Shown here: positions 10,298 to 62,130 of the stretch, piece after piece
Layout of the letters: the number at the start of each line of letters is the position of its first letter
How positions within the stretch are numbered: the stretch's first letter is position 1
The notes under the pieces: model-generated
What the model was told of the DNA's origin: nothing
What the model saw: the letters and a program-made list of their open reading frames with translations, nothing else
Databases searched by the model: none
NCBI GenBank assembly: GCA_964431555.1
Contig: CAYSJW010000005.1
Span: 15,215 to 79,214 of the forward strand
Length of the DNA stretch: 64,000 nucleotides
Source: an uncultured Gammaproteobacteria bacterium
GTDB lineage: Bacteria > Patescibacteriota > Microgenomatia > UBA8517
Direction: 5' to 3'
Program-made: the position numbers and the translations under genes

Positions 10298-10330
<33 letters not shown>

Positions 10331-11304: not shown

Positions 11305-11362
11305 AACTGTCTCGCGACGTTCTGAACCCAGCTCACGTACCGCTTTAATGGGCGAACAGACC

Positions 11363-11393
<31 letters not shown>

Positions 11394-11968: not shown

Positions 11969-12002
<34 letters not shown>

Positions 12003-12933: not shown

Positions 12934-12992
<59 letters not shown>

Positions 12993-13505
12993 ATGATTTT
13001 CGACTTCCTTTCAAACTTAAAATGAATTTAGAGACCTTAGCCGAGAGTCTGGGTTGTTTCCCTCTCGTCTTATCAGCTTAGCCCGATAAGACTGTCTAGC
13101 AAGTTTTCGCACATCATTATTCGGAGTTTGGTTGGAATAACTCGGTTGCCCTCGCTATCCCATCCAGTAGCTCTACCACTAATGTACCTACCTTGCCACG
13201 GTGCCTATACACCTTTCGGGGAGAACCAGCTATCTCCAGGCTCGATTGGCATATTACCCCTATCCACAAGTCATCCGAGCTTATTGCAACAAACACCGGT
13301 TCGGGCCTCCCCCTAGATTTCTCTAGGGTTCACCCTGCTCATGGATAGATCGCTCTGGTTTCGGGTCTCGCCACACTTTCTAGGGCACTATTCGTACCCA
13401 TCCAAAATGGAATTCGCTTTCGCTACGCCTCCGTTCTTTAAAGAACTTAGACTTGTGAAAATGAGGCGAACTCGCCGGTTCATTCTTCAATAGGCACGCT
13501 ATCAC

Positions 13506-13640
13506 ACCTCGCTTCACTCGGTGTTCAAAAAATCAAAATGAAAAAGAATAAATATTAAAGAATTAATAAACTTTTATCTCTTAAATACTCATCTTACACT
13601 TTTCATTTTGAAGTATGAATTTGAGCGTCGAGTGAAACGA
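13506..13640 (-). other. AT-rich hairpin insertion (intervening-sequence-like expansion) inside the 23S rRNA 5' half.
   Basis: ~130 nt of ~20% GC inside otherwise ~50% GC rRNA, with an inverted repeat CAAAATGAAAAAG...CTTTTCATTTTG. It is flanked by conserved 23S sequence. Confidence 0.5.
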
Positions 13641-13709
13641 GATGCTCTAGCGGTTTGTCCGCAAACAGTTTCAGGTTCTATTTCACTGGGCGTCCCGCCC
13701 TTCTTTTCG

Positions 13710-13741
<32 letters not shown>

Positions 13742-14650
13742 TTTCAAGCATATTTAGCCTTGGAGGATGGTTCCCCCAGATTCCCACAGATTTTAGACCG
13801 TGGTACTTAGGATACTTCTAGAGGTTGGTTTAGTTTCACATACGAGGCTTTCACTCTCTATGGCCTTCTATTCCAAGACGTTCTGCTACCAAACCAACTC
13901 CCACAATGAAGTCCTGCAACCCTCTTTCGTTCCCGAAGAAACAAAAGAGTTTAGGCTATTGCCGTTTCGCTCTCCACTACTAAGGCAATCACTATTGTTT
14001 TCTTTTCCTCACCCTACTAAGATGTTTCAGTTCGGATGGTTCCCTCCTCGCACCTTATAGGTACTCACAACAATCAACAATCAACCAACAGATATTGTAA
14101 GTTCCGCGGAGCGGAACACGTCGACTGTTAACTGTAGAGAGTACCTCTTAGGGTACGGGTAGTCGCTTTTGAAAGCAACTGGGTTTCCCCATTCGGACAC
14201 CGCCGGATCACTGGATCGTGGCTCCTACCCGGCGATTATCGGAAGCCTTGCCCGTCCTTCTTCGGTGCTTGAAACCAAGGCATCCACTGTCTGCGTTAGT
14301 AAAAGACTTTTACGACCTTGTCCGTAATAGCTTGTACAAAGTACACGCATACGGACCTACTTCCCCAAATTAAAAGATCAATATTGGGGATATCTTTCCT
14401 CTTTAGTTGTTAAGGAGCAAATCAATTTTAGATATAAGATCTAAGATACAGGATACAAGATTTAAGATTTCAGTTCAAAAAATCTTACTTCCTACTTCCT
14501 TCATCTTACATCCTAATTCCAACAACTAACCACTCACAACCCACAACTCACCACTTATTTCCCACTACCCATATATTCTTGATTCTTGGTAAACGGAGAC
14601 TCGTGATCAAAAAGCCAAATCACCAATCTCCGATTAGCAAAAATCAAATG

Positions 14651-16012: not shown

Positions 16013-16181
16013 GAAAATATACTAAACTGTTTACTACAAATAAAATTTTACATTTATTTTTTTCCAAAAACAACCCACCACCCACTACTCACAACCCACA
16101 ACTCACTACCCACCACTCACAACCCACAACTCATATCTCACCCCCCCTTCTTTTACTCTGACTTAAATGTATAATTAGATT

Positions 16182-19332: not shown

Positions 19333-20184
19333 AGTCTAATTATTCGGACCTTAAATGTTGATTTAATAACATAAATAAGCGTTTTTCTTGCTCTTTGAAA
19401 TTTTAATTTCTGTGATTGTATCGCCAGATGTATTCTCCAAGATATAAAGGCAGTCTTTGTTGACAAATTCCACCTCTAGCCGCTAGTTTCCTTTTCAAAT
19501 ATCCCCAAAATCCTTCAAGGCCATTGATGTGATTTCCTTTTTTATTAGAATACTCTTTTTTACTATGATCAACAAGTCGATGGACATAACCTTTGGATGC
19601 TAATCCAGTGTATCCTCGCCAAGTATCAGAACAGATGGTTGAACCTTTGCTAACTTGTTTTTCAATTAAGGGTTGTAAATCTCTGGCTTCTGTATCAGGA
19701 ACAATCTCAGCGAATATCTTTCCTTCCCGGCACAAAATACCAAAGACTGGTTGTTTAATAGTCCCAAAACCCCTGCGATTTTTACCATATTTTATGCAGT
19801 CTTTTTGCTTTCTATTCTTCATTTGACCACCCAAGTAAGTCTCATCTACTTCTACTATTCCCGAAAAGATGTCTGGCACATCTTTAGTCATTACTATTCT
19901 TAACAGAATTAATAATTTCAGAAGTTTGTATTTGGAAATGTTAACCCTTTCAAGGATAGTGTTGGTTGAATGTTCTAACACAAACTCAGAAATTACTTTT
20001 TTAACAACCCTTTTATTAAGTCTTAGAAGCTTCTTTTTCAGAGTAAATGACTTTCGACAAACTAAACAACGAAGACGTCCATCTTTTAATCTCCAGAACC
20101 TTTTGGTATTACTACATTGTAAACATTTCGTCATATTCCTAATGTGATTTTATCCCATTAGGTCTGAAATATTGAACTTTACCC
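19327..20184 (-). mobile_element. IS1595-family insertion sequence (~858 bp) with ~24-bp terminal inverted repeats.
   Basis: Left end GGGTAAAGTCTAATTATTCGGACC (19327..19350). The right end reverse complement is GGGTAAAGTTCAATATTTCAGACC (20161..20184). It encloses transposase ORF 19403..20134. Confidence 0.8.
19403..20134 (-). CDS. IS1595-family (ISXO2-like) DDE transposase.
   Basis: N-terminal zinc ribbon CLQCSNTKRFWRLKDGRLRCLVCRK and a C-terminal region ...HINGLEGFWGYLKRKL...YLGEYIWRYNHRN typical of DDE_Tnp_IS1595. Confidence 0.85.
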   Translation of the reverse strand: MTKCLQCSNTKRFWRLKDGRLRCLVCRKSFTLKKKLLRLNKRVVKKVISEFVLEHSTNTILERVNISKYKLLKLLILLRIVMTKDVPDIFSGIVEVDETYLGGQMKNRKQKDCIKYGKNRRGFGTIKQPVFGILCREGKIFAEIVPDTEARDLQPLIEKQVSKGSTICSDTWRGYTGLASKGYVHRLVDHSKKEYSNKKGNHINGLEGFWGYLKRKLAARGGICQQRLPLYLGEYIWRYNHRN

Positions 20185-20446
20185 TATATTATGAAAGCTT
20201 TCTAGTCAATGATAACTAAAATATTCAAAACATATCTTCAAAGCACCCCTTGTTAGAAGAGAAAAAAATTTCAAGCGGGATCGTGGGACAAAAAACCTCC
20301 TTGTAAAACTCTTGGTGGAGGGTACAGAGATGGTAAAAAATAGCAGTTAGCAATTAGCAGTTAGTTGTTAGTTGTTAGTAGTTAGTAGTTAGCAATTAGC
20401 AGTTGGCGGTTGGTAATTAGCAGTTGGTTTTTAGTAAAATGCAAAT

Positions 20447-20719
20447 ATGAGCGGTTTTGAGGATTTGAGGATTTATAGACTTTCTTTGGAGGGCTGCAAG
20501 ATAATTTACAAGATTATTTTAAAAGACCCTATTAAAAAAGATTACTCTTTAGTTGATCAAATAAAAAGGGCAGTTATGTCGATTGTCGCTAATATTGCTG
20601 AAGGTTATGGACGCTACACTAAAAAAGACCGCTCTCAGTTTTTAACATATTCAATTGGATCTTGTAATGAAGTACTAGCCTTTTTGGATATAATCAATAC
20701 TATTTGTAATATTGAATAA
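20447..20719 (+). CDS. Four-helix-bundle protein (TIGR02436, '23S rRNA intervening-sequence protein' family), short form.
   Basis: LRIYRLSLEGCKIIYKI...AVMSIVANIAEGYGRYTKKDRSQFLTYSIGSCNEVLAFLDI has the NIAEG signature. It is a paralog of the ORF inside the 16S IVS. It is flanked by inverted heptamer arrays at 20341..20427 and 20811..20880. Confidence 0.75.
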   Translation: MSGFEDLRIYRLSLEGCKIIYKIILKDPIKKDYSLVDQIKRAVMSIVANIAEGYGRYTKKDRSQFLTYSIGSCNEVLAFLDIINTICNIE

Positions 20720-23679: not shown

Positions 23680-24222
23680 CTAAATTCACAAAATCACCAA
23701 TTCCTCAACACCGGGAGTTGATCAGCTTCCAACAATGGGTCTTTTAGATAAAGTGAGTTGTTGGTTGTTAGTTGTTAGTTGTTAGTTGTTAGTGGTTAGT
23801 GGTTAGTTATTAGTTGTAAGAGGTATGGAATGAGGAGTGAGTGGTGGGTAGTGGGTAGTGGGTTGTGGGTTGTGAGTAGTGGGTGGTGAGTTGTGATAAA
23901 TAGATATAGGAAGTTAGAAGTTAGTAGTTAGTATCTGGGAGTTGAGGAAAATAAACCCAAAACACAAAATTCAAAATTGTAATAAAAATTTAAAAATTAT
24001 AATTATTAATATAAAGTAGAATCATTAACTATTAACCATAAATTAATAATAATTTACAGGTTTTGAAGTTTAGTATAAAGCTTTCAAGATTTAGCTTTTG
24101 AGACACAAATATTCTCCATAATAAAAGACCAACGCCATATAAAGATTCTGAATAGCAATTTTATTCACTACAAAGTATTTTGACTGGAAAAATAGTTCAA
24201 TACTATAATATCAAATTACAGC

Positions 24223-25079: not shown

Positions 25080-25951
25080 ATTGCACTTCATCGAAGTTAT
25101 CGTGCGTTCCCACTAAGCGAGCGGCTTTCCCGCACTTAGCGAGCCGTAATGCTTATTCATCTCCAGCTTCAATTTCCTAATAAAAGAGAGTTCTTTTTCA
25201 GAGAGCTTACGCACATCCTGCCTTCCCTTAACTATCTCGGCTATTTGGCAAAAAGCATTAAAACTTTCCGCTTTATAGCCCAAGAGTTTATGTCGTTTGA
25301 AAAAGGGTATTATGACATTGTAAATATCATCCCTTTTTGTAAATTCAAAGACCCAAGCAGGAAGACGACCCACGCGCCTAGCACTCTTTTGATAAACAGT
25401 CCCTACGTTGAAAAATTGCTGGACCTTTAAAAGCAATGGTTTATTTCCTTCAGCTTGAGTAATGAAAAATCGTAAATCGATTCTGTTATCAGCTCGAATA
25501 GATACAAGGAAACATCCCTCACCTTCTGTCAATCCAACAACATATGAAGCTGGAAGCATTACGTATTTCCCTTCGATAATGCCAGTATACGAATGTTTTC
25601 AATATACTGTCAATTATCTACTATGGAAATGCTGACTTCCTAAAAGGCAATTACTTCGTTCCTTTTAGGATCTCCGTGGGTCATCATATATTCTATTCCC
25701 GGCATGAACAAATTGCTTTTACAAACTGGCTTCCTTCTGACCGCCCAGCAGAAGTCGCCAAGCATTTTCATTTTGTCCCTGCCGTTTGCCTCAGGCCCTC
25801 CGTTCTATCGGTTACCCGTAAAAGCAAAGTTTATACTTTGCAATAGAACTGCCAATTTTTTGGCTACATTTCAAGTTGGTAAAGGTTAACCATCAAGAAA
25901 TGGTAAGATTTTAACTTACTAGAATATATGACTGCCACGCGCGCATTTATT
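25080..25951 (-). mobile_element. Group I intron in the 16S rRNA 3' domain, inserted after GTACACACCGCC, carrying a LAGLIDADG ORF.
   Basis: 16S collinearity stops after ...GGGTCTTGTACACACCGCC (plus 25952) and resumes at CGTCAAGTCAGCAAAGTTGGGGG (plus ~25079). The ~870-nt insert contains ORF 25113..25559. Confidence 0.85.
25113..25559 (-). CDS. LAGLIDADG-family homing endonuclease (intron-encoded, in 16S).
   Basis: MLPASYVVGLTEGEGCFLVSIRADN carries the LAGLIDADG-type motif VVGLTEGEGCF. 148 aa. Confidence 0.9.
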   Translation of the reverse strand: MLPASYVVGLTEGEGCFLVSIRADNRIDLRFFITQAEGNKPLLLKVQQFFNVGTVYQKSARRVGRLPAWVFEFTKRDDIYNVIIPFFKRHKLLGYKAESFNAFCQIAEIVKGRQDVRKLSEKELSFIRKLKLEMNKHYGSLSAGKPLA

Positions 25952-30751: not shown

Positions 30752-30890
30752 AAAGATAATTCCCCAGATCTTTATCGATAAAATTAAATATCCCAATTAA
30801 ATAATTAAATACCCGAAAGGTTTGAACCTATTCAACCCGTCGGGTTTGAACCTATTTTTTCATTAACTCTACGTTTAAATTCAAGAGATT
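30752..30890 (+). repeat. Direct repeat copy 1 (~140 bp) of a hairpin-containing element. It overlaps the 3' end of gene 30832..32118.
   Basis: AAAGATAATTCCCCAGATCTTTATCGATAAAATTAAATATCCCAATTAAATAATTAAATACCCGAAAGGTTTGAACCTATTCAACCCGTCGGGTTTGAACCTATTTTTTCATTAACTCTACGTTTAAATTCAAGAGATT. It is nearly identical to 32391..32539. Confidence 0.9.
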
Positions 30891-32118
30891 TTAAATATAA
30901 TGATCGTAAAAAAAGCCCAAATAACACTCTTTCTTCATCGTTAGGATCCTGTAGTACATCTGCATATGAAAGTGAAAAATCTAAATTACCTATAAAACAA
31001 ATCAAATGTAAACATTCTTCTAACCTTGCCCTATCTTCATAGTCAATATTTCTTTTTCGAAATAAATCTCTAGTATTAGCCATAATTACATTAAATAACT
31101 TTCTTCCAATACGAATATTAGTCGGTAATTTTTCAAATGCTTCTCTTAAAAATTTCTCAGCCTGAGATAATCTTTCAGCTTTTGATTTACTTCCCCACCT
31201 AGGATCTATTAACGTTGTAGCAAGCAACTCTTTGAACCTAGGATTATCTGGATCTCTATTAATTAAACTTTCTAATATTCCTCTAGCCATATTTAATCTA
31301 TTAATTGCTGATCTTTTTCCTTCCCACCTAGGATCTATTAACGTTGTAGCAAGCAACTCTTTGAACCTAGGATTATCATCTGGATCACTATTAGCTACTC
31401 CATCTAATAATATCTGTTGTGCTGTTTGAAACAAATTTGGATTATAAGACGATTGGAAAACGTGGCTTTTAGTTGTAAGTAAAAGTGCTAACACCTCTCT
31501 AACACCTTCAATTCTTACCCCTTCTATCCCCGATAATAATCTTTCTACTTGCTCTCTATGTTTTTCATTATAATAACGAACAAAATGTAAGTTTTCCATA
31601 CAAATTAGACATTCAGCCATTTCTATTACTTTTCCAGTCTCATTCCCTCTATCTCTGTTAGATCTCAAACCTTCATAAATAATATCAAATTTTCTTTTGT
31701 AATATCCTAATAACAACTGATCCAACACTAATTCAGCTGCCACTAGAAGATGAGCTTTTGCTTTTTCTTCCTCCCAAACGTCTGTCAAATATCTTATCGA
31801 AGAAAAGTTGTCTTTAATTCTTTCCAAGAATGATTCAGGATAAAATATTCTTAGATCAGAAGATAACTCTTCCAAACTAATTACTGCTACATCCTCAAAA
31901 ATAATTTCTGCCATATTTCTCCATAAGTTTTCTTCTAATGAATTTCTAGATAAAATTTCTCTCAATCTTCTTTTAGCATCTTCTGGAGGAATTTGATATA
32001 AATCTCCTATCAAATATCCTCTTTTTGAAACTAGACTATCTTCATCTCTCTCAAACTTAACAATACGAGGGGGTTCTTCTAGTCCACTTTCAACTGCTAG
32101 AGTTTCATTATCTTTCAT
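30832..32118 (-). CDS. Hypothetical protein (428 aa) with an internal ~40-aa tandem duplication, flanked by ~140-bp direct repeats.
   Basis: Long ORF with an internal repeat DPD(D)NPRFKELLATTLIDPRW(E/G)(G/S)K.S (DNA 31187..31262 vs 31307..31382). No family is recognised. Confidence 0.6.
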   Translation of the reverse strand: MKDNETLAVESGLEEPPRIVKFERDEDSLVSKRGYLIGDLYQIPPEDAKRRLREILSRNSLEENLWRNMAEIIFEDVAVISLEELSSDLRIFYPESFLERIKDNFSSIRYLTDVWEEEKAKAHLLVAAELVLDQLLLGYYKRKFDIIYEGLRSNRDRGNETGKVIEMAECLICMENLHFVRYYNEKHREQVERLLSGIEGVRIEGVREVLALLLTTKSHVFQSSYNPNLFQTAQQILLDGVANSDPDDNPRFKELLATTLIDPRWEGKRSAINRLNMARGILESLINRDPDNPRFKELLATTLIDPRWGSKSKAERLSQAEKFLREAFEKLPTNIRIGRKLFNVIMANTRDLFRKRNIDYEDRARLEECLHLICFIGNLDFSLSYADVLQDPNDEERVLFGLFLRSLYLKSLEFKRRVNEKIGSNPTG

Positions 32119-32832: not shown

Positions 32833-33195
32833 AATGTAATTTCAATTAAGTTAAATAAGCAGGTAAATTATAACAAAAGACCAGTCCTTTTAAAACTCGG
32901 ATAACAAAAATATATTTTGTTCAAAAAGATTTCGTATAAAACATAGTTTTCCAGCAAATTTCCTAAGTCAAAGGGCTTCTAAGCTAAAACATTTGAATTC
33001 AAGTCCTCCCGAGCTTATAAATCTAGCAGGTTCAAAAAAACCAAAAATTACCCACTGTTGGAAGCTAATCAACACCCGGTGTTGAGAAATACTCACTACT
33101 CACAACTAACAACTCACTACCAACTTCTTACATCCTACATCCAATTTCCTATTGCCTTAACACTTAATAATTTGTCCTAATCTTCAATACCTAAG

Positions 33196-41472: not shown

Positions 41473-41772
41473 TCACTTTCCAAATTTTGTTTTAAGTTTT
41501 AATTTTTTAGTTTTAAGCTCTTTTAACTTCCACATAAAAAGCTTCGGCTTTGATTTAACGTTATAAGCTTCCTTGACAAAATTCCTCGCTTCTTCCAATA
41601 AAATTCTAGGTGTTTCCTTAGCCAGCTTGATATAAAGAGATTTATGATTAAGGTCACCCAATTCTTGGGCTAAATCGTAGCCATATTTTTGAAACTCGCG
41701 AGAAATATACTTATCCTTGCCTTTCTCAAACTTTTCCAAGATATCAGAAATTTTGGTAAAATCCTTAGGCAT
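41473..41772 (-). CDS. Hypothetical protein (99 aa, basic).
   Basis: ORF with coding-like composition and no motifs. Confidence 0.35.
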   Translation of the reverse strand: MPKDFTKISDILEKFEKGKDKYISREFQKYGYDLAQELGDLNHKSLYIKLAKETPRILLEEARNFVKEAYNVKSKPKLFMWKLKELKTKKLKLKTKFGK

Positions 41773-42311
41773 ACCAATTTATTTCTTAAACACATACAAC
41801 TAACAACTATTTCCTACATCCTACATCTTACTTGCTACTTCCTAACCCCAACTTCCAATCACCTACAACTAACCCCCTACCACTCACAACTAACTTCTCA
41901 CAACCCACCACTCATTTCCCATTACCTACAACCAATATCCATAACCCACTACTTACATCATCAACTTATTTATATTTAAATTTTTTATCCACTTTGATGA
42001 TTCGAATCATAGATACAGACTATCCTCATACACTTCACTAACAACAACCTATTACCTACTTCTCACTGCTCACTACCATCTGCTAATAACTACCAACCAC
42101 CTACTTCCTACTTCCTATATTCTACATCCTACATCTTACTTGCTACTTCCTAACCCCAACTTCCAATCACCTACAACTAACCCCCTACCACTCACAACTA
42201 ACTTCTCACAACCCACCACTCACTACTCACTACCCACTACTCACTATCCACCACTCACTACCAACAACCAACTACTCACAACTCCCTACCCTCTCAAATA
42301 AATCAGGGATA
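41770..42311 (+). repeat. A 540-nt tract almost devoid of G on the plus strand, built from degenerate heptamer repeats (CYCACWA / CCACTAM). It contains a 100-bp perfect internal direct repeat.
   Basis: Only ~7 G in 540 nt. Heptamer periodicity is visible, e.g. CCACTCA CAACTAA CTTCTCA CAACCCA CCACTCA. 41814..41914 is identical to 42123..42223. A 14-bp perfect palindrome ATGATTCGAATCAT lies at 41997..42010, preceded by the DnaA-box-like TTATCCACT. Confidence 0.9.
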
Positions 42312-42853
42312 ACTTTTTCAATTACCTCTTTGAGTTTTACTTTCTCATCTTCCCTAAAATCCTGCAAAACATATTTTTCTCCCGGAATCCTTTCAACAAA
42401 ACTTCGATTATCCACCCCAATTCTTACTCTCCAAAAATCCTTTGTCTTCAGTTCCTTCTCGATAGACAAAATCCCATTATGAAGCTTCGGACCAACACCA
42501 AATTGGATTTTATAATCTCCAAGCCGTAAATCCAAATCATCATGAATAACCCAAAGATCTGGCAATATTACTTTAAAATGATTTATCAATTTATACAATG
42601 CAATTCCGGATAAATTCATAGACGTTTGGGGTTTTGCAAAAACAGTTTTTTGATTAGAATTTTCAGAATTTCTGCAAATACAAATCAAGGACTGAAGTTT
42701 ACTATTATTTTTAAATTTCAAGTCACAATTTTTATTTTTCAATTTTAAATTTTGAATCTGAAAGACCAAGGCATCCAAAATCATAAACCCAATATTATGT
42801 CTTGTACCTTCAAATTTTTTCCCCGGATTTCCCAAACCGGCAATTAATTTCAT
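42272..42853 (-). CDS. pth: Peptidyl-tRNA hydrolase.
   Basis: MKLIAGLGNPGKKFEGTRHNIGFMILDAL is the Pth signature N-terminus. 193 aa. Confidence 0.9.
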   Translation of the reverse strand: MKLIAGLGNPGKKFEGTRHNIGFMILDALVFQIQNLKLKNKNCDLKFKNNSKLQSLICICRNSENSNQKTVFAKPQTSMNLSGIALYKLINHFKVILPDLWVIHDDLDLRLGDYKIQFGVGPKLHNGILSIEKELKTKDFWRVRIGVDNRSFVERIPGEKYVLQDFREDEKVKLKEVIEKVIPDLFERVGSCE

Positions 42854-48343: not shown

Positions 48344-50110
48344 CTAGTTTTTTTGCAATTTATAAAGCCTTTTCAATTCAGTTATTGTTGTTGCTTCCTT
48401 TGGAGATTTATCCTCCCTAAATCTAACCAGCCTCGGAAATCTCAAGGCAAATCCACTGGAGTGAGTCGGACTCACGGTTATTTCATCAGCAGCAATTTCA
48501 ACCACCAACGAAGGTTCAACCCAAAAATCAGGCTCTAGCAACTTATCAACCAAATAACTTTTTGGTTTTTCTTTAGCCTCTAATCCTGTTAATCTTTTTT
48601 TTAATTCATGAAATTGCTCATCCGTCAAACCTGTTCCAACCTTTGTAACAGTTTTTACTATCTCCCCATCTAAAATTCCAACCAAAAATTGACCTACTCC
48701 AAAAGAGACTCTTTTTCCACGACCTAAAGAATATCCCATTACAATACAATCGACAGTATCAGCTAATTTTGCCTTTGCTCCTTCTTCTTCCTTCATCTTA
48801 ACCCATCTCCATCCCGTTCTACCTGCAACGTATTTACTGTCATATTTTTTGACAATTATTCCTTCCATTCCTTGTTTTAACCTCTCTCTCATAAGCCGGC
48901 TAATCACTTCAGGATCTTGGGTCACTTCATAATCAACAACTTCAAGCAAACTATTTTTCTTTATCACCTCTGATAATATTTTTCTTCTTTCTTCATAAGG
49001 TAAATTCACCAAACTTTCTCCGTCCTTATACATCAGGTCAAAAACACAAAATTTTATTGAAACTTTTGAAGCAATTTTTTCTATGTCGTGCTTTCTTCTC
49101 CTAGTCATAGTTGTCTGAAAATTAGCCAATGATTTTCTCTCCTCATCCACCCCAATGCCCTCACTATCAAAAATCGCCTCCTGACAATTAATATATCTTT
49201 CGACACCCTTCAGTTCCGGAAACATCCATGAAGTCTCATTCAAATTTCTGGTAAAAGCTTTAACTTTAGTCCCATCAGAAAAACCAGACCTTTTATAATG
49301 AATTTGTATTCTAAGACCATCAAATTTAGGCTCAACAAAAACCTTTTTCATCTTCTCTATCATTTCTTTGGGACTTTTCAATCTCTGTGCCAGCATGGGT
49401 AAAATCGGCACACCGACTTCGGGCTTGATTCTTTTTACCGACTCATCTATTCCAAACTTCTTAACCTCTCTGGCCAAAAGCCCGACATCCGGATAAAGAT
49501 TATAAGCTGTTTCAATTTTTCCTCTTTTTTCCTTGCTTCCAGTTTCCATCCAAGACAAGGCATCAATAACCGTCTTATCAGAAAAACCTAATCTCAACTT
49601 ACCCAAAGGAATTCTGACAACAAAACGACATGACAAAGGATCCAAAAACGAGATAAGCTTGGACATTTTTTCTATCTTTCTTTCCTGACTTCCTTCTCCC
49701 TCATCTGAAGCTATTTCCAAAAGCTTTTCATGAACTTCCCTAACACTGAGTTCGTAAGAATTACCTTTCCTTTTACGCTCATTTGCCAGTCTAAAAGCAA
49801 CCTCCCCCAAATCTCCTTCCTTTTTATACATTTCAACTACCAAGGCAACCTCAATTGAATAAGCCCCTGCCAAAGCCCTAACTAGCATTTTTTCAGCCAA
49901 ATTAAAAACCACACCTGAATAAATAGGTGCTAAATTCCCCAAAATCAAATAGACCACTTTATCTATTTCGCTTTCATTTGATTTTGCAAAAAGTTCGGCA
50001 AGTATTTTTGTAATTTCTATTCTGGATGAAGTTTTTTCCAGTCTTTCTAAATATCTTGCGAGATTTCTAAATGTCATAAGTTTAATCAAACAAACCTTAT
50101 ATAGACCCAA
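48344..50110 (-). CDS. ATP-dependent DNA ligase. The probable start is the internal MTFRNLARYLERLE (~50077).
   Basis: Adenylation motif I KFDGLRIQIHY (KxDG), plus N-terminal DNA-binding and C-terminal OB-fold regions typical of archaeal/eukaryal-type ligases. Confidence 0.85.
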   Translation of the reverse strand: MGLYKVCLIKLMTFRNLARYLERLEKTSSRIEITKILAELFAKSNESEIDKVVYLILGNLAPIYSGVVFNLAEKMLVRALAGAYSIEVALVVEMYKKEGDLGEVAFRLANERKRKGNSYELSVREVHEKLLEIASDEGEGSQERKIEKMSKLISFLDPLSCRFVVRIPLGKLRLGFSDKTVIDALSWMETGSKEKRGKIETAYNLYPDVGLLAREVKKFGIDESVKRIKPEVGVPILPMLAQRLKSPKEMIEKMKKVFVEPKFDGLRIQIHYKRSGFSDGTKVKAFTRNLNETSWMFPELKGVERYINCQEAIFDSEGIGVDEERKSLANFQTTMTRRRKHDIEKIASKVSIKFCVFDLMYKDGESLVNLPYEERRKILSEVIKKNSLLEVVDYEVTQDPEVISRLMRERLKQGMEGIIVKKYDSKYVAGRTGWRWVKMKEEEGAKAKLADTVDCIVMGYSLGRGKRVSFGVGQFLVGILDGEIVKTVTKVGTGLTDEQFHELKKRLTGLEAKEKPKSYLVDKLLEPDFWVEPSLVVEIAADEITVSPTHSSGFALRFPRLVRFREDKSPKEATTITELKRLYKLQKN

Positions 50111-50326: not shown

Positions 50327-51397
50327 TTAATTACTACTTGAGATTATATACCTTGCCGCTTTTGTTTTTCCTTCCTTTTTTATTATATTCTTTTCCAGAA
50401 GATAGTTAATATCCCGTAAAATTGTATCTTCCGAAACCATAGGCAAAACATTTCTCAATTCATACATACCGGCCGAATTGTTTTCCGAAAGATATTCAAT
50501 AAGTTTCATCTGCCTCTCGCTCAAAGCAATCTGTTGGCCAAGCTTACCTTTTAATTTGGAATCAATTGAAAGTTTTCTAACCTTTTCCTTGACCTTCCCC
50601 AATTCAACAGCCACCACTTGAGTGAAATACTCCAGCCAAGGAGTCAAATCTCTTAAGGCTAAATTAGGAGACTGTTTATCAACTTGAGCAAATGCCTCAT
50701 AGTAAGAGACTAAATCCTCATCGAAATGTTCTTCAATTGAGAAGAATCTCTTCATATTGTATCCTTCCTTCATCAAAATAAGATTAGAAAAAGCGCGAAC
50801 TGTCCTCCCATTACCCTCAACAAAAGGGTGAATTGCAACCAAAATGTAATGAGCAATACCAGCCCTTAATATAGGGTGAATTTCCTTGGACTCATCTGAA
50901 TTAAGCCACTCAAAAAAGTCCTGAATCAAATAGGTAACCTCTATAGCAGGAGGGGGAGTTAAAATAATCCGTCCGCTTCCTTCTTCCTTGATAACAACCT
51001 GAGTTTTTCTAAAAACCCCAATTTTATCTTGAGGAACAATTTTATTCACAGTTTCTTTATGTATCTCTTTTAAGTCTTCTTCCGAATAACCTCCTCTTTT
51101 AGCCGATAAATCATCCAAAAGTTCCATCACATTTCTATAATTGATAACCTCCTGAATATCCCTGTCATGAGCGATTACCTCCTCCCCCTCCAAAAGTTTT
51201 TTCACCTGATCCAAATTATCTAAACCCACTCCCTCGATATGAGTTCCGTGGTGAATTGTGCGAGCCAAGGCGTCCGAAGCAAATTGTTTTTCGTAATAAG
51301 GTACAAGAGGGGCGTTTTCAATAACTTCACGCGATGCTTCTATTGAAGCTATATTTTTAAGAATTTTATTGGTAATTGTAAATTTTGGGATATACAC
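50327..51397 (-). CDS. Fic-family protein (putative AMPylase).
   Basis: Canonical Fic motif HPFVEGNGRTVR (HPFx[DE]GNGR). 356 aa. Confidence 0.85.
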   Translation of the reverse strand: MYIPKFTITNKILKNIASIEASREVIENAPLVPYYEKQFASDALARTIHHGTHIEGVGLDNLDQVKKLLEGEEVIAHDRDIQEVINYRNVMELLDDLSAKRGGYSEEDLKEIHKETVNKIVPQDKIGVFRKTQVVIKEEGSGRIILTPPPAIEVTYLIQDFFEWLNSDESKEIHPILRAGIAHYILVAIHPFVEGNGRTVRAFSNLILMKEGYNMKRFFSIEEHFDEDLVSYYEAFAQVDKQSPNLALRDLTPWLEYFTQVVAVELGKVKEKVRKLSIDSKLKGKLGQQIALSERQMKLIEYLSENNSAGMYELRNVLPMVSEDTILRDINYLLEKNIIKKEGKTKAARYIISSSN

Positions 51398-53025: not shown

Positions 53026-53931
53026 CTAACCCAAGAGGTTTTTCAAAGTTTCCGGTATTTTGTCAGCCAAATCATCCGAATTAAAATTAACTCCCACCTT
53101 CTCATATAGTTCATCAGCTGCCTTTTTAATAATAAATGAAGCGCTCGCGGCAGCCAGAAATGGCTCATTTTTGGCCAAAAGAGCAACCGTTAATCCCGCC
53201 AAAATGTCACCGGTTCCTCCCTTTGTCAATCCTGCATTACCGCCTTTTACCAATGCACAATCATTTGGTGAGGCAACAATTGTTTCCGGACCCTTCAGAA
53301 CTATCGTACAACCATATCTCTTAACCATCTCCCCTACAATTTTTGAGTTTTGATCTGTCATTTTGATATTTGATTTTTGAATTTTGACTTTGAACAACAT
53401 CTCAAATTCCTTAGTATTTGGTGTCAGAATCGCTTTTTCCGGTATCCATTCTACATCCATCACCTGCAAACTTCCCGCGTCAATTACCCAACGCTTTTCT
53501 GGAAATTGCTTTAATAACCTTTGAGTTATATTCCTTGTCTTTCTCCCCTCAGAATCATAACTTCTTATTTCAGAACTTCCATTTTGATTTTTGATTTCTG
53601 ATTTTTGATTTTCCCTCCTGTATCGCATAAATCCCGGTCCTATCAAAACAGCGTCGGATTTTTTAATATATGCATCAACATCCTCCCAAGGTACCCAGAT
53701 AAAAGACATTAACTCTGACTTAATCCGATTTGTAACTTCTCGAAAGCTTTCTTCAGGTGATGCAAAAAAAACCATATCCACAATACGCGAGGCTACTTTT
53801 AACGACAAAATCGGCGCTCCATGGAAAAGTTTCGACCCACCAATAATTGTTACCTGTCCATTTTGTTCACCAGATGATAAAGGATGAGGTTGATATAATT
53901 TTTTTAATTCATTTGGATCAAAGGTTCTCAT
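53026..53931 (-). CDS. nnrD: ADP-dependent NAD(P)H-hydrate dehydratase (YjeF C-terminal domain).
   Basis: GGSKLFHGAP...VIDAGSL...KGGNAGLTKGGTGDILAGL matches the YjeF_C carbohydrate-kinase motifs. It contains two in-frame low-complexity inserts encoded by TTTTGAT repeats (53341..53392, 53582..53612). Confidence 0.8.
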   Translation of the reverse strand: MRTFDPNELKKLYQPHPLSSGEQNGQVTIIGGSKLFHGAPILSLKVASRIVDMVFFASPEESFREVTNRIKSELMSFIWVPWEDVDAYIKKSDAVLIGPGFMRYRRENQKSEIKNQNGSSEIRSYDSEGRKTRNITQRLLKQFPEKRWVIDAGSLQVMDVEWIPEKAILTPNTKEFEMLFKVKIQKSNIKMTDQNSKIVGEMVKRYGCTIVLKGPETIVASPNDCALVKGGNAGLTKGGTGDILAGLTVALLAKNEPFLAAASASFIIKKAADELYEKVGVNFNSDDLADKIPETLKNLLG

Positions 53932-57143: not shown

Positions 57144-58280
57144 TCAATCCAATAGCTTTCCATTCCCCGAAACTTTCTTTACTAACCTTTTGATACTCTC
57201 TACGAATCTTTCTTTAGAAAATTTTAATGCATTTTTTTGGAGAGTTGCTTTACTCCATTTTTTAGTTTCAACTCTTTTAATTGCATCACGAACTGCTTTC
57301 TCACTTACCTCATTAATCAAAACACCCGTCACTCCGTCAATAACTGACTCTCTAAATCCCCCTCCGTTAAAGGCAATAACTGGTGTTCCCGCGGCTTGAG
57401 CTTCAACCACAGTCATACCAAAATCTTCATCTTGTGCTAAAGCAATAAACCCCTTTGCCTTTGCGTAAAGCTCATATAACTTGTCATCAGATACTCTTCC
57501 AATCAATTCGATATTTTTTGATCCTTGATCTTTAATTTTTGATAAAACATCCGAGTATCCTGCCGCTTCACCAACTATTTTAAGTCTGTAATTACAACCC
57601 AATTTTGAAAACACTTTCACTGCCTCCTCCAAACCCTTAGCACCCACTAATCTGGAAACTATTAAAAAGTAGTCCTCTTTACTTTTGATTTTTGATATTT
57701 GATTTTTGATTTTATTTACGTCCACCGGCGGATAGATTACAACTGAATCTCTTCTATAAAATTTCTCAATTCTTGATGCTACGTTTTTGGAATTAGCGAT
57801 CCAGAAATCAACACTTTGAGCAGTTTTGAAATCATAAAGCCTCATAAAATGCCCAACAATTGCAGCATAAACCTTGACAGGTAAATATTTGGTAAAGCCA
57901 ATCGAAGTTTTATAACCATAAAGCCACCTTGGAGGTGTATGACAATAGGCAATCACTTTAGTTCTAGAACCTATCTTAAAACCTCGGGTTATATACCAAC
58001 TACAAGAAGTTATAATCAAGTCATACTTTGAAAGATCAAAACTTCTCCAAATTAATGGAGTTAGAAAACGCAAGGGAGAATAAAGTTTACCAATCTTTAA
58101 AAGGGGCGCCAAAAAACTTTCGTGAATTCTCCTACCCCTAAACACCTTTTCAGCTGTACTTCCTTTTACCGAAAATGCCGTATAAATTGGAGCTTTTGGG
58201 TAAATTTCTGATAACACTTTAAGCACCCTTTCTGCACCGCCAAACTCCCTCAAATAATCGTGTAACAACGCAACTTTCAC
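57144..58280 (-). CDS. Glycosyltransferase family 4 (GT-B).
   Basis: The C-terminal domain with EDFGMTVVEAQAAGTPVIAFNGGGFRESV is a GT4 signature. It contains the in-frame insert NKIKNQISKIKSK from (TTTTGAT)4 at 57683..57713. Confidence 0.85.
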   Translation of the reverse strand: MKVALLHDYLREFGGAERVLKVLSEIYPKAPIYTAFSVKGSTAEKVFRGRRIHESFLAPLLKIGKLYSPLRFLTPLIWRSFDLSKYDLIITSCSWYITRGFKIGSRTKVIAYCHTPPRWLYGYKTSIGFTKYLPVKVYAAIVGHFMRLYDFKTAQSVDFWIANSKNVASRIEKFYRRDSVVIYPPVDVNKIKNQISKIKSKEDYFLIVSRLVGAKGLEEAVKVFSKLGCNYRLKIVGEAAGYSDVLSKIKDQGSKNIELIGRVSDDKLYELYAKAKGFIALAQDEDFGMTVVEAQAAGTPVIAFNGGGFRESVIDGVTGVLINEVSEKAVRDAIKRVETKKWSKATLQKNALKFSKERFVESIKRLVKKVSGNGKLLD

Positions 58281-58629: not shown

Positions 58630-59586
58630 CTAAAACAAACTTCCTTGGTTTTCCGAAACAATAGATCTACCAACCTCTTTCACTCTTTTTGCCAAGGACT
58701 TAAAACCATATTCGGAAAATAAATCTAGCACCTTTTGACTATCCACTCTCCAATTCTTCAATTTTCCCAAATCCACCTTAAATTCCATATCTTTTACAAT
58801 TCTGGCAAGTTTTTGAAACCTAAAAGCATTTTCTTTATCCTTTTCTAGTTTTTTTCTTGTTGATTCATCTAAATCCTTGAGGTGTTTATAAATACTCTCT
58901 AAACTCTCATATTTAGCCAAAAGTTTAACTGCAGTTTTTGGACCAATTCCAGAAACTCCCGGATAATTATCCGATGGGTCTCCCACTAAAGCTTTAAAAT
59001 CGGGAATCTGCTTTGGTTTTACCCCAAGTTTTTCAACTACATCCTCTTCCTTCATTAACTTAGCAGCCGATAAGCCTTTCACAGGCATATAAACACTGAT
59101 ATTTTTTCCATCATCAACGAGCTGCAGGATATCTCTATCTCCCGTAACAACAACAACCTCATCAATTCTTGACTGATTGAGCTGTTTAGAAGTCCCCGCC
59201 AATTGTAAGGCAAGCGTACCGATGATATCATCCGCCTCATATCCGGGAGCTTCAAAAATAGGTATATCCATTGCCGAAAAAACATCTTTAGTTTTCTCAA
59301 TTTGAACCTGCAAATCATTTTCCAAAGGAGGTCTTTGCGCTTGATAATCAGGAAACTCTTTTCGTCTGAAAGTAGGTTCTGGCCGATCAAAAGCAACAGC
59401 CAAGTGTGTTGGTTTTAGGTCTTGAATCACCCTTAAAAGCATTGAAACCAAACCATAAACGGCATTTATCGGTTCTCCTTTCCTTGTAGTTAAAGGAGGA
59501 AGAGCATGATAAGCGCGGTGCAAAATTGCGTGGCCGTCAATCAAGATAAGTTTGCGATTTGCTGATTTGGATAAAGATTCATTCAT
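58630..59586 (-). CDS. Stand-alone 5'-3' exonuclease / flap endonuclease (Pol I N-terminal-domain-like).
   Basis: KLILIDGHAILHRAYHALPP...AVAFDRPEPTFRRKEFPDYQAQR...GDRDILQL...IPGVSGIGPKTA (H3TH). 318 aa. Confidence 0.85.
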   Translation of the reverse strand: MNESLSKSANRKLILIDGHAILHRAYHALPPLTTRKGEPINAVYGLVSMLLRVIQDLKPTHLAVAFDRPEPTFRRKEFPDYQAQRPPLENDLQVQIEKTKDVFSAMDIPIFEAPGYEADDIIGTLALQLAGTSKQLNQSRIDEVVVVTGDRDILQLVDDGKNISVYMPVKGLSAAKLMKEEDVVEKLGVKPKQIPDFKALVGDPSDNYPGVSGIGPKTAVKLLAKYESLESIYKHLKDLDESTRKKLEKDKENAFRFQKLARIVKDMEFKVDLGKLKNWRVDSQKVLDLFSEYGFKSLAKRVKEVGRSIVSENQGSLF

Positions 59587-59880
59587 AGGAGAAATTCTTT
59601 AGTATTTAGTATTTAGTATTTAGTAGTTAGTGGTTAGTGGTCAGTGGTTAGTAGTTTATAGTTGATCATTAGCAATAAATTTTCCTTCCACCTTTCAACC
59701 AACCACCAACAACTTATAACTTATAACTTATAACTTACTTCTCACTACCCCCCTCTTACTTATCATCACTCACAGCTCACAATCCACTACTTATTTCTCA
59801 CTTCTCACAACCCACTACTCATAACTCACTACACGCTATCCACTTCTCACTATCTACACAATCTACGACTAACCTACCTT
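59587..59880 (+). repeat. Back-to-back inverted heptamer arrays: (TTAGTRG)n at 59590..59680 (C-free) switching to (CYCACWA)n at 59690..59880 (G-free).
   Basis: AGTATTTAGTATTTAGTATTTAGTAGTTAGTGGTTAGTGG... is followed by ...CTCACTTCTCACAACCCACTACTCATAACTCACTAC. The two halves are imperfect reverse complements. An 18-bp near-palindrome CGATAATTCGAATCATCG follows at 59899..59916. Confidence 0.85.
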
Positions 59881-60061
59881 TTAATGACTTATCCACTTCG
59901 ATAATTCGAATCATCGATGTAATTTAAGATTTACTAATTGTCAAGAACAATCCGATAATAATTTAAAATTAGCTACAATATTAATCGTATATATAAAGAA
60001 AATTTTTCCTGTATTAACTATTAACTAAAGTTTACTCCATACAGGCTAATACATAATTCTG

Positions 60062-60304
60062 AACTTTTATTCTATTTCAAATTCTCTTTACCTAACTACT
60101 CACAACTCACCACCCACCACTCACTTCCTACTCCCTAATCCCTACATCTTACTTCTTACATCCTATTCTTACTTCCTATAACCAACTACAAACAACCAAT
60201 AACTAACAACTTACCACTCACTACTCACCACCCACTACCCACCACTCACTTCTTACTTTATATTTCCTTTCTTTCCAACTATTTTTTCAAAATCATCTCT
60301 ATCT
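60062..60304 (+). repeat. 243-nt G-free heptamer-repeat tract spanning the ftsH stop and 3' flank.
   Basis: No G between 60062 and 60304. Repeats are of the form CTACTCA CAACTCA CCACCCA CCACTCA. Confidence 0.85.
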
Positions 60305-62130
60305 AGTGTTTCCTTCTCCAAAAGTGCATCCACAACTTTATCAACCAATTTCCTTTTTTCCGTAATCAATAATTTAGCTTTTTTATAACAACCATCAACT
60401 ATTCTAGATACTTCCGAATCGATTTTCTCCTGCATTGCTGGAGAAACTTGAGCTGGTTCATACCATTGTGCTTTTCCCATTTCGTCATAATCATATTGTG
60501 GTCCCAAATTTACCGGCCCCAAAGAACTCATTCCAAAATCAACCACCATTGCTCTCGCTAAACGCGTTGCATTCTCTATATCATTTGATGCACCAGAGGT
60601 CATTTCATTAAAAACAATTTCCTCCGTTGCTCGTCCCCCCAGAAGTGCCGTTATTTGCTGAAGAATTCTACTCTTAGTTTCATGCGTCCTGTCAGCCGCA
60701 GGAGGTATTAATGTATGACCTAAACTCATTCCCCTTGCAACTATTGATATTCTATGAACAGGATCCATCTTAGAGAGAAAGTGAGTTACAATTGCATGTC
60801 CGGCTTCATGATAAGCAGTAAGCTTTTTATCCTCCTCGCTTTGAAGTTTTTTCTTTGCCGGACCCAATTTAACCTTTGTAGCAGCTTCTTCTATATCACC
60901 TTCATCTATTAAGGTCTTATTCATACGAGCTGCCAAAATAGCCGCCTCGTTGAGCATATTTTCAATATCAGCTCCCGAAAATCCAACCGTCCTATCAGCA
61001 ACTCTTCCCCAGTTTATCTTTTTTGTAAATTTTTTACCCCTCGCATGTATTTTAAGAATCGCCAATCTTCCCTCCTTATCAGGCATATCCAAAACAACAC
61101 GTCGGTCAAAACGTCCAGGCCTTAAGAGAGCCGGATCTAAAAGATCTCCCCTATTGGTCGCCGCCAAAACGATTACATTGTCATTGGGTGTAAATCCATC
61201 CATCTCAACAAGTATTTGATTTAGTGTTTGTTCTCTTTCATCGTGTCCACCAATAAAACCTCTGCCTCTTTGTCTGCCAATTGCATCTATTTCATCAATA
61301 AAAATAATAGAAGGGGATGAAGCTTTCGCCTGCGCAAATAAATCTCTTACTCTTGACGCGCCAACACCAACGAGCATCTCCATAAATTCACTTCCCGCCA
61401 TTGAAAAAAACGGAACGCCAGCCTCACCTGCCACAGCTTTAGCCAGCAAGGTCTTTCCAACACCAGACGGCCCAAAAAGTAAAACCCCCTTGGGAGTTCT
61501 TGCTCCAATTTTTCTATATTTCCCTGGGTTTTTCAAAAAATCTACAACCTCTTCCAATTCCTTCTTAGCATCATCTACCCCTGCTACATCATCAAAAGTT
61601 ACACTCTGTTTACCTTTGGCAAAAAGCTTTGCCCTACTTCTCCCAAAAGAAAAAATATCTTGGGCTCCTCTTGTTTGGGCACGAATTATAAAGAAAAAGA
61701 AAATTGCCATTAAAACAATAGGCAATAAAACACCAATTATATCTCCAATAGATTTTGCTAATGTCTGATCTACAACTTTGTATTTAACATCCACTGGACT
61801 AATTCCAGCTTTGTCCAAAAGATCCGCCAAACTATCACCTGGTTCCTTTATTGCAGTTTTAACATCTCCGTTTTCGTAATTGATTATCAATCTCTCATTT
61901 TGAACAATTATTTCTTTTACCTTTCTTTCCTTTATATCCGAAAGAAGTTTGGATATCTCTACTTTACTTTCCGTTGACTGAAGCTGAAAAAGAGAAACAA
62001 TAAAAGGAGCAAAAAACATTATAATAAAAATAGTGACCAAAGCCTTCCAAAGATTAATTTTGAGTCTGAACTCAAATCTCTTTTCCTTTTTAACTGGATT
62101 TATTTTTCTAATTTCTTTCAAAGGATCCAT
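60253..62130 (-). CDS. ftsH: ATP-dependent zinc metalloprotease FtsH.
   Basis: Walker A GPSGVGKTLLAKAVAGEAGVPFF, SRH region and zinc site HEAGHAIV. N-terminal TM pair. Confidence 0.95.
   Translation of the reverse strand: MDPLKEIRKINPVKKEKRFEFRLKINLWKALVTIFIIMFFAPFIVSLFQLQSTESKVEISKLLSDIKERKVKEIIVQNERLIINYENGDVKTAIKEPGDSLADLLDKAGISPVDVKYKVVDQTLAKSIGDIIGVLLPIVLMAIFFFFIIRAQTRGAQDIFSFGRSRAKLFAKGKQSVTFDDVAGVDDAKKELEEVVDFLKNPGKYRKIGARTPKGVLLFGPSGVGKTLLAKAVAGEAGVPFFSMAGSEFMEMLVGVGASRVRDLFAQAKASSPSIIFIDEIDAIGRQRGRGFIGGHDEREQTLNQILVEMDGFTPNDNVIVLAATNRGDLLDPALLRPGRFDRRVVLDMPDKEGRLAILKIHARGKKFTKKINWGRVADRTVGFSGADIENMLNEAAILAARMNKTLIDEGDIEEAATKVKLGPAKKKLQSEEDKKLTAYHEAGHAIVTHFLSKMDPVHRISIVARGMSLGHTLIPPAADRTHETKSRILQQITALLGGRATEEIVFNEMTSGASNDIENATRLARAMVVDFGMSSLGPVNLGPQYDYDEMGKAQWYEPAQVSPAMQEKIDSEVSRIVDGCYKKAKLLITEKRKLVDKVVDALLEKETLDRDDFEKIVGKKGNIK

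Follow-up and report, generated by a model that had tools for sequence, protein, structure and literature searches.

How does the spacer between two co-oriented bacterial genes come to consist of roughly 500 nt that are almost free of guanine on one strand, are built from 7-nt units and hold a palindrome in their midst, and do the units and the palindrome belong together? The question is raised by the interval between pth, the gene for peptidyl-tRNA hydrolase, and the open reading frame (ORF) that follows it, here called ORF99, in a 64-kb stretch of contig CAYSJW010000005.1 (the window, by which we mean the whole stretch analysed). The window comes from a low-GC (37%), Woesebacteria-like bacterium of the Candidate Phyla Radiation (CPR), the best-named homologues of its proteins being those of Candidatus Woesebacteria. 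Both genes lie on the - strand, and the tract occupies the spacer between the pth stop codon and the ORF99 start (41772). We consider it probable that the segment is made of two unrelated things that have become superposed, namely a heptamer spacer that has expanded in this lineage and a decayed copy of a palindrome, which would most likely be an operator of the TrpR/YerC family of regulators.

The first-pass annotation of this DNA had described a strongly G-depleted tract of period 7 at 41770-42311, and such a tract is indeed present. Tandem Repeats Finder (TRF) detects arrays of TCCTACA (41812-41844), CCTACTT (42100-42152) and ACTCACT (42190-42289, 14.3 copies), and identity at lag 7 is 0.63-0.65 against a background of about 0.25-0.3, and lags 3 and 4 give side peaks. 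The 7-nt copies are joined head to tail, as in the heptanucleotide repeats of Calothrix PCC7601, which we take to be those known as short tandemly repeated repetitive sequences (STRR). The depletion is less extreme than the seven G and the 226-nt G-free run initially counted: the 542 nt contain 12 G, five in the motif core, three in the coding end of pth and four in the tract proper, and the longest G-free runs here measure 161 nt (41835-41995) and 163 nt (42143-42305). A G-free run of 244 nt does exist, at another locus (60062-60305). The probability of a 161-nt run anywhere in 64 kb is ~1e-6 at the G content of the window and ~0.016 at the neutral-site G content of the + strand. The overlap with the 3' end of pth, also described earlier, extends ~34 nt into the gene; the stop codon is 42272-42274, and the last ~11 codons together with the stop are composed of tract-like heptamers. 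Read on the sense strand, 30 consecutive T-N-R-G-N-N-G units stand in one register from 42271 down to 42062, with positions 1, 4 and 7 conserved and positions 2, 5 and 6 varying among A, G and T (heterogeneity chi2 = 31, p = 2e-5).

The perfect direct repeat that had been given as 100 bp is exact and measures 101 nt, the position first reported for its second copy being off by one (Table 1). Its two copies are offset by 308 bp, which is 44 x 7, and enclose 207 nt of single-copy sequence carrying the palindromic motif. Since the offset equals 44 heptamers, the duplication took place in the heptamer register, as misalignment within a periodic array predicts. The tract is real and not an assembly artefact, as independent assemblies agree on it: an ENA contig is identical to the window over 20.6 kb, and a JGI assembly made from a different sample is interrupted precisely where each 101-nt copy has its outer edge, which is the behaviour expected of a short-k assembler and thus indicates a true repeat. 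No inverted repeats were found in 41600-42500, and a mobile element with inverted ends was rejected on this ground. A search of 41700-42350 against Rfam gave no match at E up to 1, and the same search over 59550-60300 returned only a chance microRNA match (E = 0.96), so that a known RNA family was likewise rejected. Three + strand ORFs (96, 69 and 53 aa) were dismissed as protein-coding, as they begin with TTG, are of low complexity and are absent from relatives; they exist only because TAG and TGA cannot arise on a strand without G.

Table 1. Coordinates of the pth-ORF99 spacer, of related heptamer tracts and of the palindromic motif in the window.
Feature	Position	Strand	Remarks
G-poor heptamer tract, tRNA-Pro to 23S rRNA gene	14467..14587	-	same vocabulary
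G-poor heptamer tract, tRNA-Ile to divergent + strand gene	16014..16168		90% match to 42208-42268
Same-family tract in opposite orientation (C-free on + strand), divergent intergenic region	23734..23955
G-poor heptamer tract, tRNA-Lys to tRNA-Gln	33087..33173	-
ORF99, gene downstream of the spacer	41473..41772	-	99-aa protein; synteny
ORF99-proximal heptamer tract	41773..41960	-	TCCTACA, ACCACTCACAACCA and similar units on + strand
101-nt exact direct repeat, copy A	41814..41914		JGI contig L023 starts exactly at 41914
Motif copy 1, 30 nt, TTATCCACTTTGATGATTCGAATCATAGAT	41985..42014		decayed copy of the Microgenomates 24-28-bp palindrome
pth-proximal heptamer tract	42030..42305	-	sense T-N-R-G-N-N-G; ~1% G on + strand
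101-nt exact direct repeat, copy B	42122..42222		JGI contig L002 ends exactly at 42122
pth (peptidyl-tRNA hydrolase), gene upstream of the spacer	42272..42853	-	PF01195; ORF
Hairpin of inverted heptamer arrays upstream of the 5'-3' exonuclease start	59590..59720	-	minimum free energy -29.8 kcal/mol, z = -2.6
G-poor heptamer tract, ftsH-to-5'-3'-exonuclease spacer	59665..59885	-	exonuclease side of motif copy 2
Motif copy 2	59889..59918		24-bp palindrome CTTCGATAATTCGAATCATCGATG at 59896-59919, 2 mismatched pairs
G-poor heptamer tract directly after/overlapping the ftsH stop	60046..60307	-	holds the 244-nt G-free run

Heptamer arrays are found throughout the window. There are 38 arrays of period 7, compared with 3.6 per composition-matched shuffle, and 11, 5 and 3 arrays of periods 14, 21 and 28, compared with 0.2, 0 and 0. 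Of the 38, 25 fall in truly intergenic DNA, which makes up about 17% of the window, another 2 lie in rRNA genes and 11 are coding, so that the many loci, the excess and the intergenic bias of STRR-type arrays are all seen within 64 kb. About ten large intergenic arrays share the vocabulary ACYCACW, CCTACWT and AACTAAC and total ~1,450 nt, roughly 13% of the intergenic DNA of the window; the segments 42208-42268 and 16070-16130 are 90% identical over 61 nt. The arrays inside genes (53582-53612, 57683-57713, 53339-53391, 42707-42757 and 41489-41517), for example (ATCAAAA)n, add 7-residue, lysine-rich inserts of low complexity to unrelated enzymes, to pth and to the ORF99 C-terminus. A glycosyltransferase carries KIKNQISKIKSK and a carbohydrate kinase NQKSEIKNQ, and the two arrays concerned have the unit TTTTGAT in common. 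A 12-copy TAGCAGT array (20341-20437), which neighbours an IS1595-family transposase gene (19403-20134), lies directly upstream of a gene (20447-20719) of the PF05635 '23S rRNA intervening sequence protein' family; PF05635 is presumably the family of four-helix bundles to which the Avd proteins of diversity-generating retroelements belong.

Comparison with relatives reveals that the spacer has grown. The gene order pth, ORF99, CvpA/CAP is conserved, and the gap between pth and ORF99 measures 3 nt in one relative (L021), 25 nt in another (L020), 320 nt in the closest (L018, ORF99 86% identical) and 499 nt in the window. The gap of the closest relative is itself a heptamer tract (lag-7 identity 0.65, 5% C on the sense strand), with different units (GAAAATA and others), and past the first few units its alignment with the window fails. 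The spacer between ftsH and the 5'-3' exonuclease gene follows the same course, from 15 nt in a Woesebacteria relative (L025) through 129 nt in the closest relative (L024, 80% identical) to 666 nt in the window, the homology between the last two being limited to the proximal 130 nt of the gap. The hairpin in this spacer (Table 1) pairs a G-rich array with an inverted C-rich counterpart and is kept in L024, unlike the rest of the spacer. ORF99 is a conserved Microgenomates protein, with 2456 homologues at 70-86% identity in a homologue search and no match in a Pfam search, and in L018, L020 and L021 its gene always stands directly after pth and before the gene of a CvpA/CAP-domain membrane protein.

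The strand asymmetry of the arrays is pronounced, with 19 G in ~1,450 nt of large arrays (1.3%) compared with 13% in other intergenic DNA. A purely mutational G-depletion was rejected, since neutral G on the + strand amounts to 8-13% and not 1.3%, and since four arrays have the opposite polarity to the eight that are G-poor on the + strand. At four-fold sites the + strand is G-poor irrespective of gene orientation (GC skew of the sense strand is +0.26 in genes on the - strand and -0.45 in those on the + strand), so that a replication-strand bias pushes in the same direction as the array polarity. When array length is tallied, the C-poor strand is the sense strand of the downstream gene for ~1,419 nt and the other strand for 97 nt. 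For most arrays polarity would thus agree with the bias between replication strands, and for nearly the whole of the array length with the orientation of the downstream gene.

Based on these data, we propose that the tract represents a lineage-specific expansion of the intercistronic spacer between pth and ORF99 by degenerate heptanucleotide tandem arrays. The genome would tend to form 7-nt arrays, both in intergenic DNA and in frame inside genes, and in unconstrained spacers such arrays may lengthen through slippage in register or through unequal exchange; the most recent growth event is probably the exact 101-nt repeat with its offset of 44 heptamers. Units that lack C on the sense strand leave the + strand without G. 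Arrays could be tolerated at operon junctions if their sense RNA is devoid of C, because such RNA cannot load Rho and no polarity would follow; the observed orientation would then reflect a filter on the arrays that are tolerated and need not be taken as proof of an adaptive function. The first-pass annotation had itself envisaged, as a refutation of its own reading, that the motif might be confined to two occurrences and the G-depletion explained by simple tandem duplication of one short seed. This is half borne out: the motif is of low copy number, and the depletion arises largely, though probably not wholly, from the amplification of G-less heptamers.

The palindrome has a different distribution. 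Copy 1 contains the palindromic core first described, a perfect 14-bp palindrome (ATGATTCGAATCAT) at 41997-42010, and the second copy of the ~30-bp motif also exists, at 59889-59918 and not at 59887-59916. The two copies share 26/30 nt, the non-palindromic flank included, and a scan of the window at up to 3 mismatches yields only these two matches, with 0 expected. Copy 2 matches an intergenic Roizmanbacteria site at 33/37 positions (by eye), the flank GTAATTTAA included. Relaxed forms of the motif were scanned against one genome per species and the JGI metagenomes, and in these collections the matches are confined to Microgenomates-type loci. The palindrome has the general form CACTTCGAT(N)ATTCGAAT(N)ATCGAAGTG, spans 24-28 bp and is conserved in Microgenomates at low copy number, the window and the one related genome that was scanned in full having 2 copies each. 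In Candidatus Roizmanbacteria RIFCSPHIGHO2_02_FULL_40_13b one of two sites is intergenic, by an ABC ATPase gene, and the other lies inside alaS, where a second species likewise carries the palindrome; L008 and L009 hold a perfect 28-mer, CACTTCGATGATTCGAATCATCGAAGTG. The core ATTCGAAT as such is not enriched in the window (2 found, 1.85 expected). Matches in a Sphingobacteriaceae sequence (L003) and in L010, L011 and L014 comprise half of the palindrome only, lie inside unrelated ORFs and were treated as chance, and a phage origin was rejected after 0 matches in viral contigs.

No G-poor tracts accompany the palindrome at its loci in relatives, and the tracts that relatives carry at the same two spacers lack it. 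The palindrome without tracts in other Microgenomates and the tracts without palindrome in the closest relatives show that the two are separate things, and the earlier view of a motif shared by a repeat family is therefore not supported. Copy 1 is probably a secondary arrival in the pth-ORF99 spacer, for instance through exchange between tracts of similar sequence, because the ancestral gap was too small to hold the motif. The alaS-internal palindrome (about 4018-4043 in L004/L013, 1393-1415 in L006 and 2545-2567 in L012) occurs in two or more Roizmanbacteria-like species, where it codes for S-(I/M)-I-R-I-I-E-V-E, and may constitute an intragenic regulatory or roadblock site. It makes use of the CG-containing codons TCG and CGA, which are expected to be rare in a low-GC genome, and a symmetric change from T..A to G..C preserves the dyad but replaces Ile by Met, which argues for selection on the DNA or RNA and not on the protein.

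What, then, might bind the palindrome? The proposal that the dyad around TTCGAA is a site for a dimeric protein gains from its surroundings in relatives, and the candidate binder is a regulator of the TrpR/YerC family. In L008 the 28-mer lies directly after the stop codon of a 149-aa Trp_repressor-family gene (PF01371, E = 8e-11), and a second copy, TTGATTCGAATCAA, falls within the 17 nt between TTGACT (-35) and TAGAGT (-10), 6 nt before the ATG. A homologue that is 62-63% identical (L026) was fetched by protein identity alone and thus provides an independent test of the association: within its 8.4-kb locus GATTCGAATC is present exactly twice, where 0.0095 would be expected, first from -28 to -8 relative to the ATG of the homologue and then about 75 nt past its stop. 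In a more distant Woesebacteria homologue (L027, 46-47% identical), whose helix-turn-helix reads TPNTIAK in place of TTGTIAK, the gene is bracketed in the same two-site layout by an AT-only palindrome, ACTATAATAATATATATTAATATAGT (3960-3995 and 4445-4475), which looks like a regulator and an operator changing specificity together. Since the palindrome brackets the regulator gene in two organisms, it is predicted to be the operator of that regulator, and an operator of a PF01371 protein is what we consider it most likely to be.

This assignment agrees with what has been described for the family, whose members, E. coli TrpR and HisR (= YerC) among them, bind 20-bp palindromes of lineage-specific sequence, with cacTTTAnnnnnnTAAAgtg as a common consensus, and often regulate their own genes (PMC9413887). 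The Microgenomates sites are likewise palindromes of about this size or longer (a 14-bp core in copy 1, 24 bp in copy 2 and a perfect 28 bp in L008), have a lineage-specific sequence and low copy number, and in L008 and L026 occupy the promoter of the regulator's own gene; the outer bases of the motif, cacTT...AAgtg, resemble the HisR consensus (PMC9413887). They differ in that the full palindrome spans 24-28 bp and not 20, that the regulator gene is followed by a second site and alaS contains further ones, and that the Microgenomates regulators comprise about 148 aa compared with under 100 aa for HisR and TrpR. By architecture and autoregulatory placement, the palindrome fits the TrpR/HisR operator class, but is longer.

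Several observations weigh against this two-part reading. As regards the operator, the outer arms of copy 1 are no longer complementary, no PF01371 protein was found among the annotated genes of the window, and one class of sites is intragenic, within alaS, an unusual place for an operator. A promoter consensus scan yields none that overlaps either window site; by eye, TTGACA stands 23 nt upstream of copy 2 (- strand) and TAATTT just downstream (+ strand), neither with a convincing partner hexamer. As regards the expansion, 0 indels separate two samples over 20.9 kb that include the ftsH-exonuclease spacer, so that slippage at this locus is not fast at present, and transcription and replication orientation are confounded within a single 64-kb window. 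The conservation of unit positions 1, 4 and 7 beside free positions 2, 5 and 6 is not predicted by neutral slippage. Furthermore, two organisms whose proteins differ by 14-20% both retain tracts at the pth-ORF99 and ftsH-exonuclease spacers, and together with the position-specific conservation this suggests that the arrays are not purely neutral. Lastly, all heptamer variants avoid G, which is involved in 26/483 lag-7 differences, in a test that is weakened by tract borders drawn by low G and by each substitution being counted twice. For these two reasons a strong claim of continuing selection against G (P = 2e-8 in the initial test) was downgraded; counted as independent events, by our own arithmetic, the avoidance has a P of about 0.03 to 2e-4 and is suggestive only.

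The tracts can also be given functional accounts. According to one of them, which we regard as unlikely though not negligible, the tracts are selected, strand-specific transcription insulators: the + strand RNA would be an ideal predicted Rho loading (rut, Rho utilisation) site and the sense RNA immune to Rho, so that antisense or read-in transcription would be stopped before entering the 3' ends of pth or ftsH. Sites of the rut type are C-rich, G-poor and unstructured RNA segments of about 80 nt. Only the + strand RNA has this composition, and over the 499-nt spacer it would be an extreme case, with 37% C (186), 2% G (9) and a minimum free energy of -6.7 kcal/mol, i.e. essentially unfolded; Rho is encoded in the window (3349-4731; PF07497 + PF00006). 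No intrinsic-terminator-like sites were found after pth or ftsH on the gene strand, a weak hairpin with a T-run near 59998-60035 having been discarded as a terminator because it folds no better than shuffles. The large tracts also start immediately at the upstream stop codons, the length tally given above places their C-poor strand on the sense side of the downstream gene, and the closest relative keeps tracts at the same two spacers. However, tracts are present in divergent promoter regions as well (16014-16168 and 23734-23955), where there is no gene 3' end to protect, which suggests that their role is not purely at the transcript level; most relatives manage with spacers of 3-25 bp; and, in contrast to known rut sites, the C-rich strand is antisense to the local genes and has a period of 7 nt, which does not match the ~11-13-nt C spacing usually quoted. 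Somewhat less likely again is an elaborated version of this account, in which the tracts form a selected strand-polar insulator module with antisense Rho pads, a sense strand that is invisible to Rho and closed in all three frames, and an embedded TrpR-like operator that gates promoter firing into the pad. If true, such a module would represent an as yet undescribed kind of non-coding transcription unit, gated by a repressor, in a CPR bacterium that relies on leaderless mRNAs. We find it improbable that the heptamers are protein-binding arrays on RNA or DNA, either read by an RNA-binding oligomer that recognises UAG, UGG or GAG triplets spaced 7 nt apart, reminiscent of HutP, which reads UAG-N4 repeats, or serving as half-site decoys for the TrpR-like regulator, whose site ends in ...GAAGTGGA. 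The retention of T1, G4 and G7 with the other positions free, as in the run TAGGAAG TAGCAAG TAAGATG TAGGATG TAGAATA TAGGAAG, would fit such a role, as would the fact that GAAGTGGATA, the arm and flank of motif copy 2, recurs within the tract at a distance of about 50 nt, and the TAACTGA repeats of Beggiatoaceae have been proposed to be binding sites of this kind (PMC4679880). Yet the closest relative does not conserve the tract sequence of the window at the same spacer, the units vary widely from one array to another, and no candidate protein for the arrays was identified. Heptamer repeats that form G-quadruplexes have a published precedent in GGGAATC of Xanthomonas and GGGGAYT of Nostoc (PMC4692102), and two other tracts of the window do contain motifs of four G3 runs, at 23846-23869 (loops <=7 nt; delimited as 23846-23883 when loops of <=12 nt are allowed) and at 16074-16125 (loops <=12 nt). 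No such motif with loops up to 12 nt is found in 41770-42311 or 59587-60252, and the G runs of the pth-ORF99 tract are 21-29 nt apart, so that a G-quadruplex was rejected for this tract at the sequence level and we give the idea that the G-rich sense strand folds in this way very little credence.

For the palindrome itself, it is possible but unlikely that the sequence is no operator at all, and is instead a small mobile element akin to repetitive extragenic palindromic (REP) sequences or an RNA hairpin with a 12-14-bp stem involved in mRNA processing or stability. Its contexts are non-orthologous (alaS, an ABC-ATPase promoter region, the end of a regulator gene and two recently grown spacers), the by-eye match of copy 2 to the Roizmanbacteria site links distantly related organisms, the flank GTGGA, read in the sense direction, follows the palindrome at the alaS site as well as at the two window sites, and the symmetric change in alaS keeps pairing despite its price in protein sequence. 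On the other hand, the copy number is only about 2 per genome. REP sequences and bacterial interspersed mosaic elements are not matched by a motif with 2 window copies and no GTAG at its ends, and no RAYT or other partner gene is present among the annotated genes; there is also no match in viral contigs and no T-run after the palindrome. In two organisms it is placed exactly in the -35/-10 spacer of the gene of a DNA-binding regulator, and in L027 palindrome and helix-turn-helix change together. A role in replication, with the motif marking an origin or terminus as part of a DnaA-box cluster or as a dif-like site, was prompted by the DnaA-box likeness of TTATCCAC, with which both window copies begin and which agrees with the consensus at 8/9 positions. 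We judge this likeness to be incidental and the reading to be extremely improbable. TTATCCACW occurs 3 times in 64 kb where 1.24 are expected, a count that 12/100 shuffles reach; the TTAT part is not conserved in relatives, which read TTTTCCAC, GTTTCCAC or TAGTCCAC there; and GTGGATA belongs to the usual vocabulary of the tracts (e.g. at 42245 and 59838). The GC-skew analysis that had been recommended gives a cumulative skew falling monotonically from -0.23 to -14.55 across the 64 kb with no switch, the annotated genes of the window include none with a DnaA or DnaN domain, and two copies 18 kb apart with a further copy in alaS of relatives are a misfit to a single dif site. An origin function was accordingly rejected on the lack of a skew switch, of box enrichment and of TTAT conservation within the 64-kb window.

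Returning to the expanded spacer, by repeat architecture the tract belongs with the intergenic heptanucleotide repeats of cyanobacteria, Xanthomonas and Beggiatoaceae. Heptanucleotide repeats are known from Calothrix PCC7601, and heptameric simple sequence repeats are in general excess in bacterial intergenic DNA (PMC4692102). Like these, the arrays of the window are head-to-tail, occupy many loci with an intergenic bias, comprise several units per genome and are lineage-specific. In contrast to them, they are composite, extend up to ~270 nt, nearly lack one base on one strand and inflate operon junctions in a streamlined CPR genome, and the large arrays match at 63-89% by TRF, short of the perfect or near-perfect copies of the simple sequence repeat definition quoted in PMC4692102. 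With GGGAATC of Xanthomonas and GGGGAYT of Nostoc they share a G-rich strand, a position between co-oriented genes and near stop codons, and a defined strand; those repeats favour four near-perfect units and form G-quadruplexes, whereas the tract has no quadruplex motif and units that vary at 3-4 of 7 positions (PMC4692102). The TAACTGA repeats of marine Beggiatoaceae, cyanobacteria and Bacteroidetes (PMC4679880) are similar in being stop-carrying heptamers that close three frames, in their orientation bias to the downstream gene and in host genomes with rare Shine-Dalgarno sites. They are short (2-6 copies), perfect, built of a single heptamer and placed directly upstream of starts, whereas the window arrays are long, degenerate, made of many heptamers and begin at the stop of the upstream gene. 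The tract thus departs from the known repeats in its degenerate copies, its composite arrays, the near absence of one base from one strand and its CPR host. Within the literature covered, a search returned no report of such heptamer arrays in Woesebacteria or Patescibacteria.

Several further features of the window concern the organism at large. A Shine-Dalgarno sequence is absent from most genes, and a -10-like box (TATAAT or TAAAAT, often with TG) ends 5-9 nt before the ATG; the closeness of these boxes to the start codons suggests that leaderless mRNAs may be widespread in this organism. The rRNA genes are unlinked, with 23S and 5S at 10.0-14.3 kb (10013-14310) and 16S at 25.9-27.4 kb, and LAGLIDADG endonuclease ORFs adjoin the 3' ends of 23S (about 10580-11035) and 16S (25113-25559), both outside and not within the Rfam-matched rRNA. 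Six tRNAs are encoded. An ATP-dependent DNA ligase of the archaeal/eukaryotic type, with DNA_ligase_A N, M and C domains, is encoded at 48344-50110, followed just downstream on the gene strand by a gene for a Fic-domain protein (50327-51397). A look-up of the 428-aa protein at 30832-32118 gave no record.

The genomes of CPR bacteria, or Patescibacteria, are regarded as streamlined, yet two junctions that measure 3-25 bp in relatives have here swelled to 500-670 bp. This points to a strong mutational or selective process that is specific to the lineage. The arrays break short-read assemblies and could fragment the metagenome-assembled genomes of this group. In an organism mostly devoid of Shine-Dalgarno sequences, their polarity offers a clean natural test of the constraint that Rho imposes on untranslated RNA. 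A literature search yielded no reports on transcriptional regulation in uncultivated Microgenomates, and the palindrome may provide the first concrete lead to an operator and a regulon for the TrpR/YerC-like regulators that are widespread among them.

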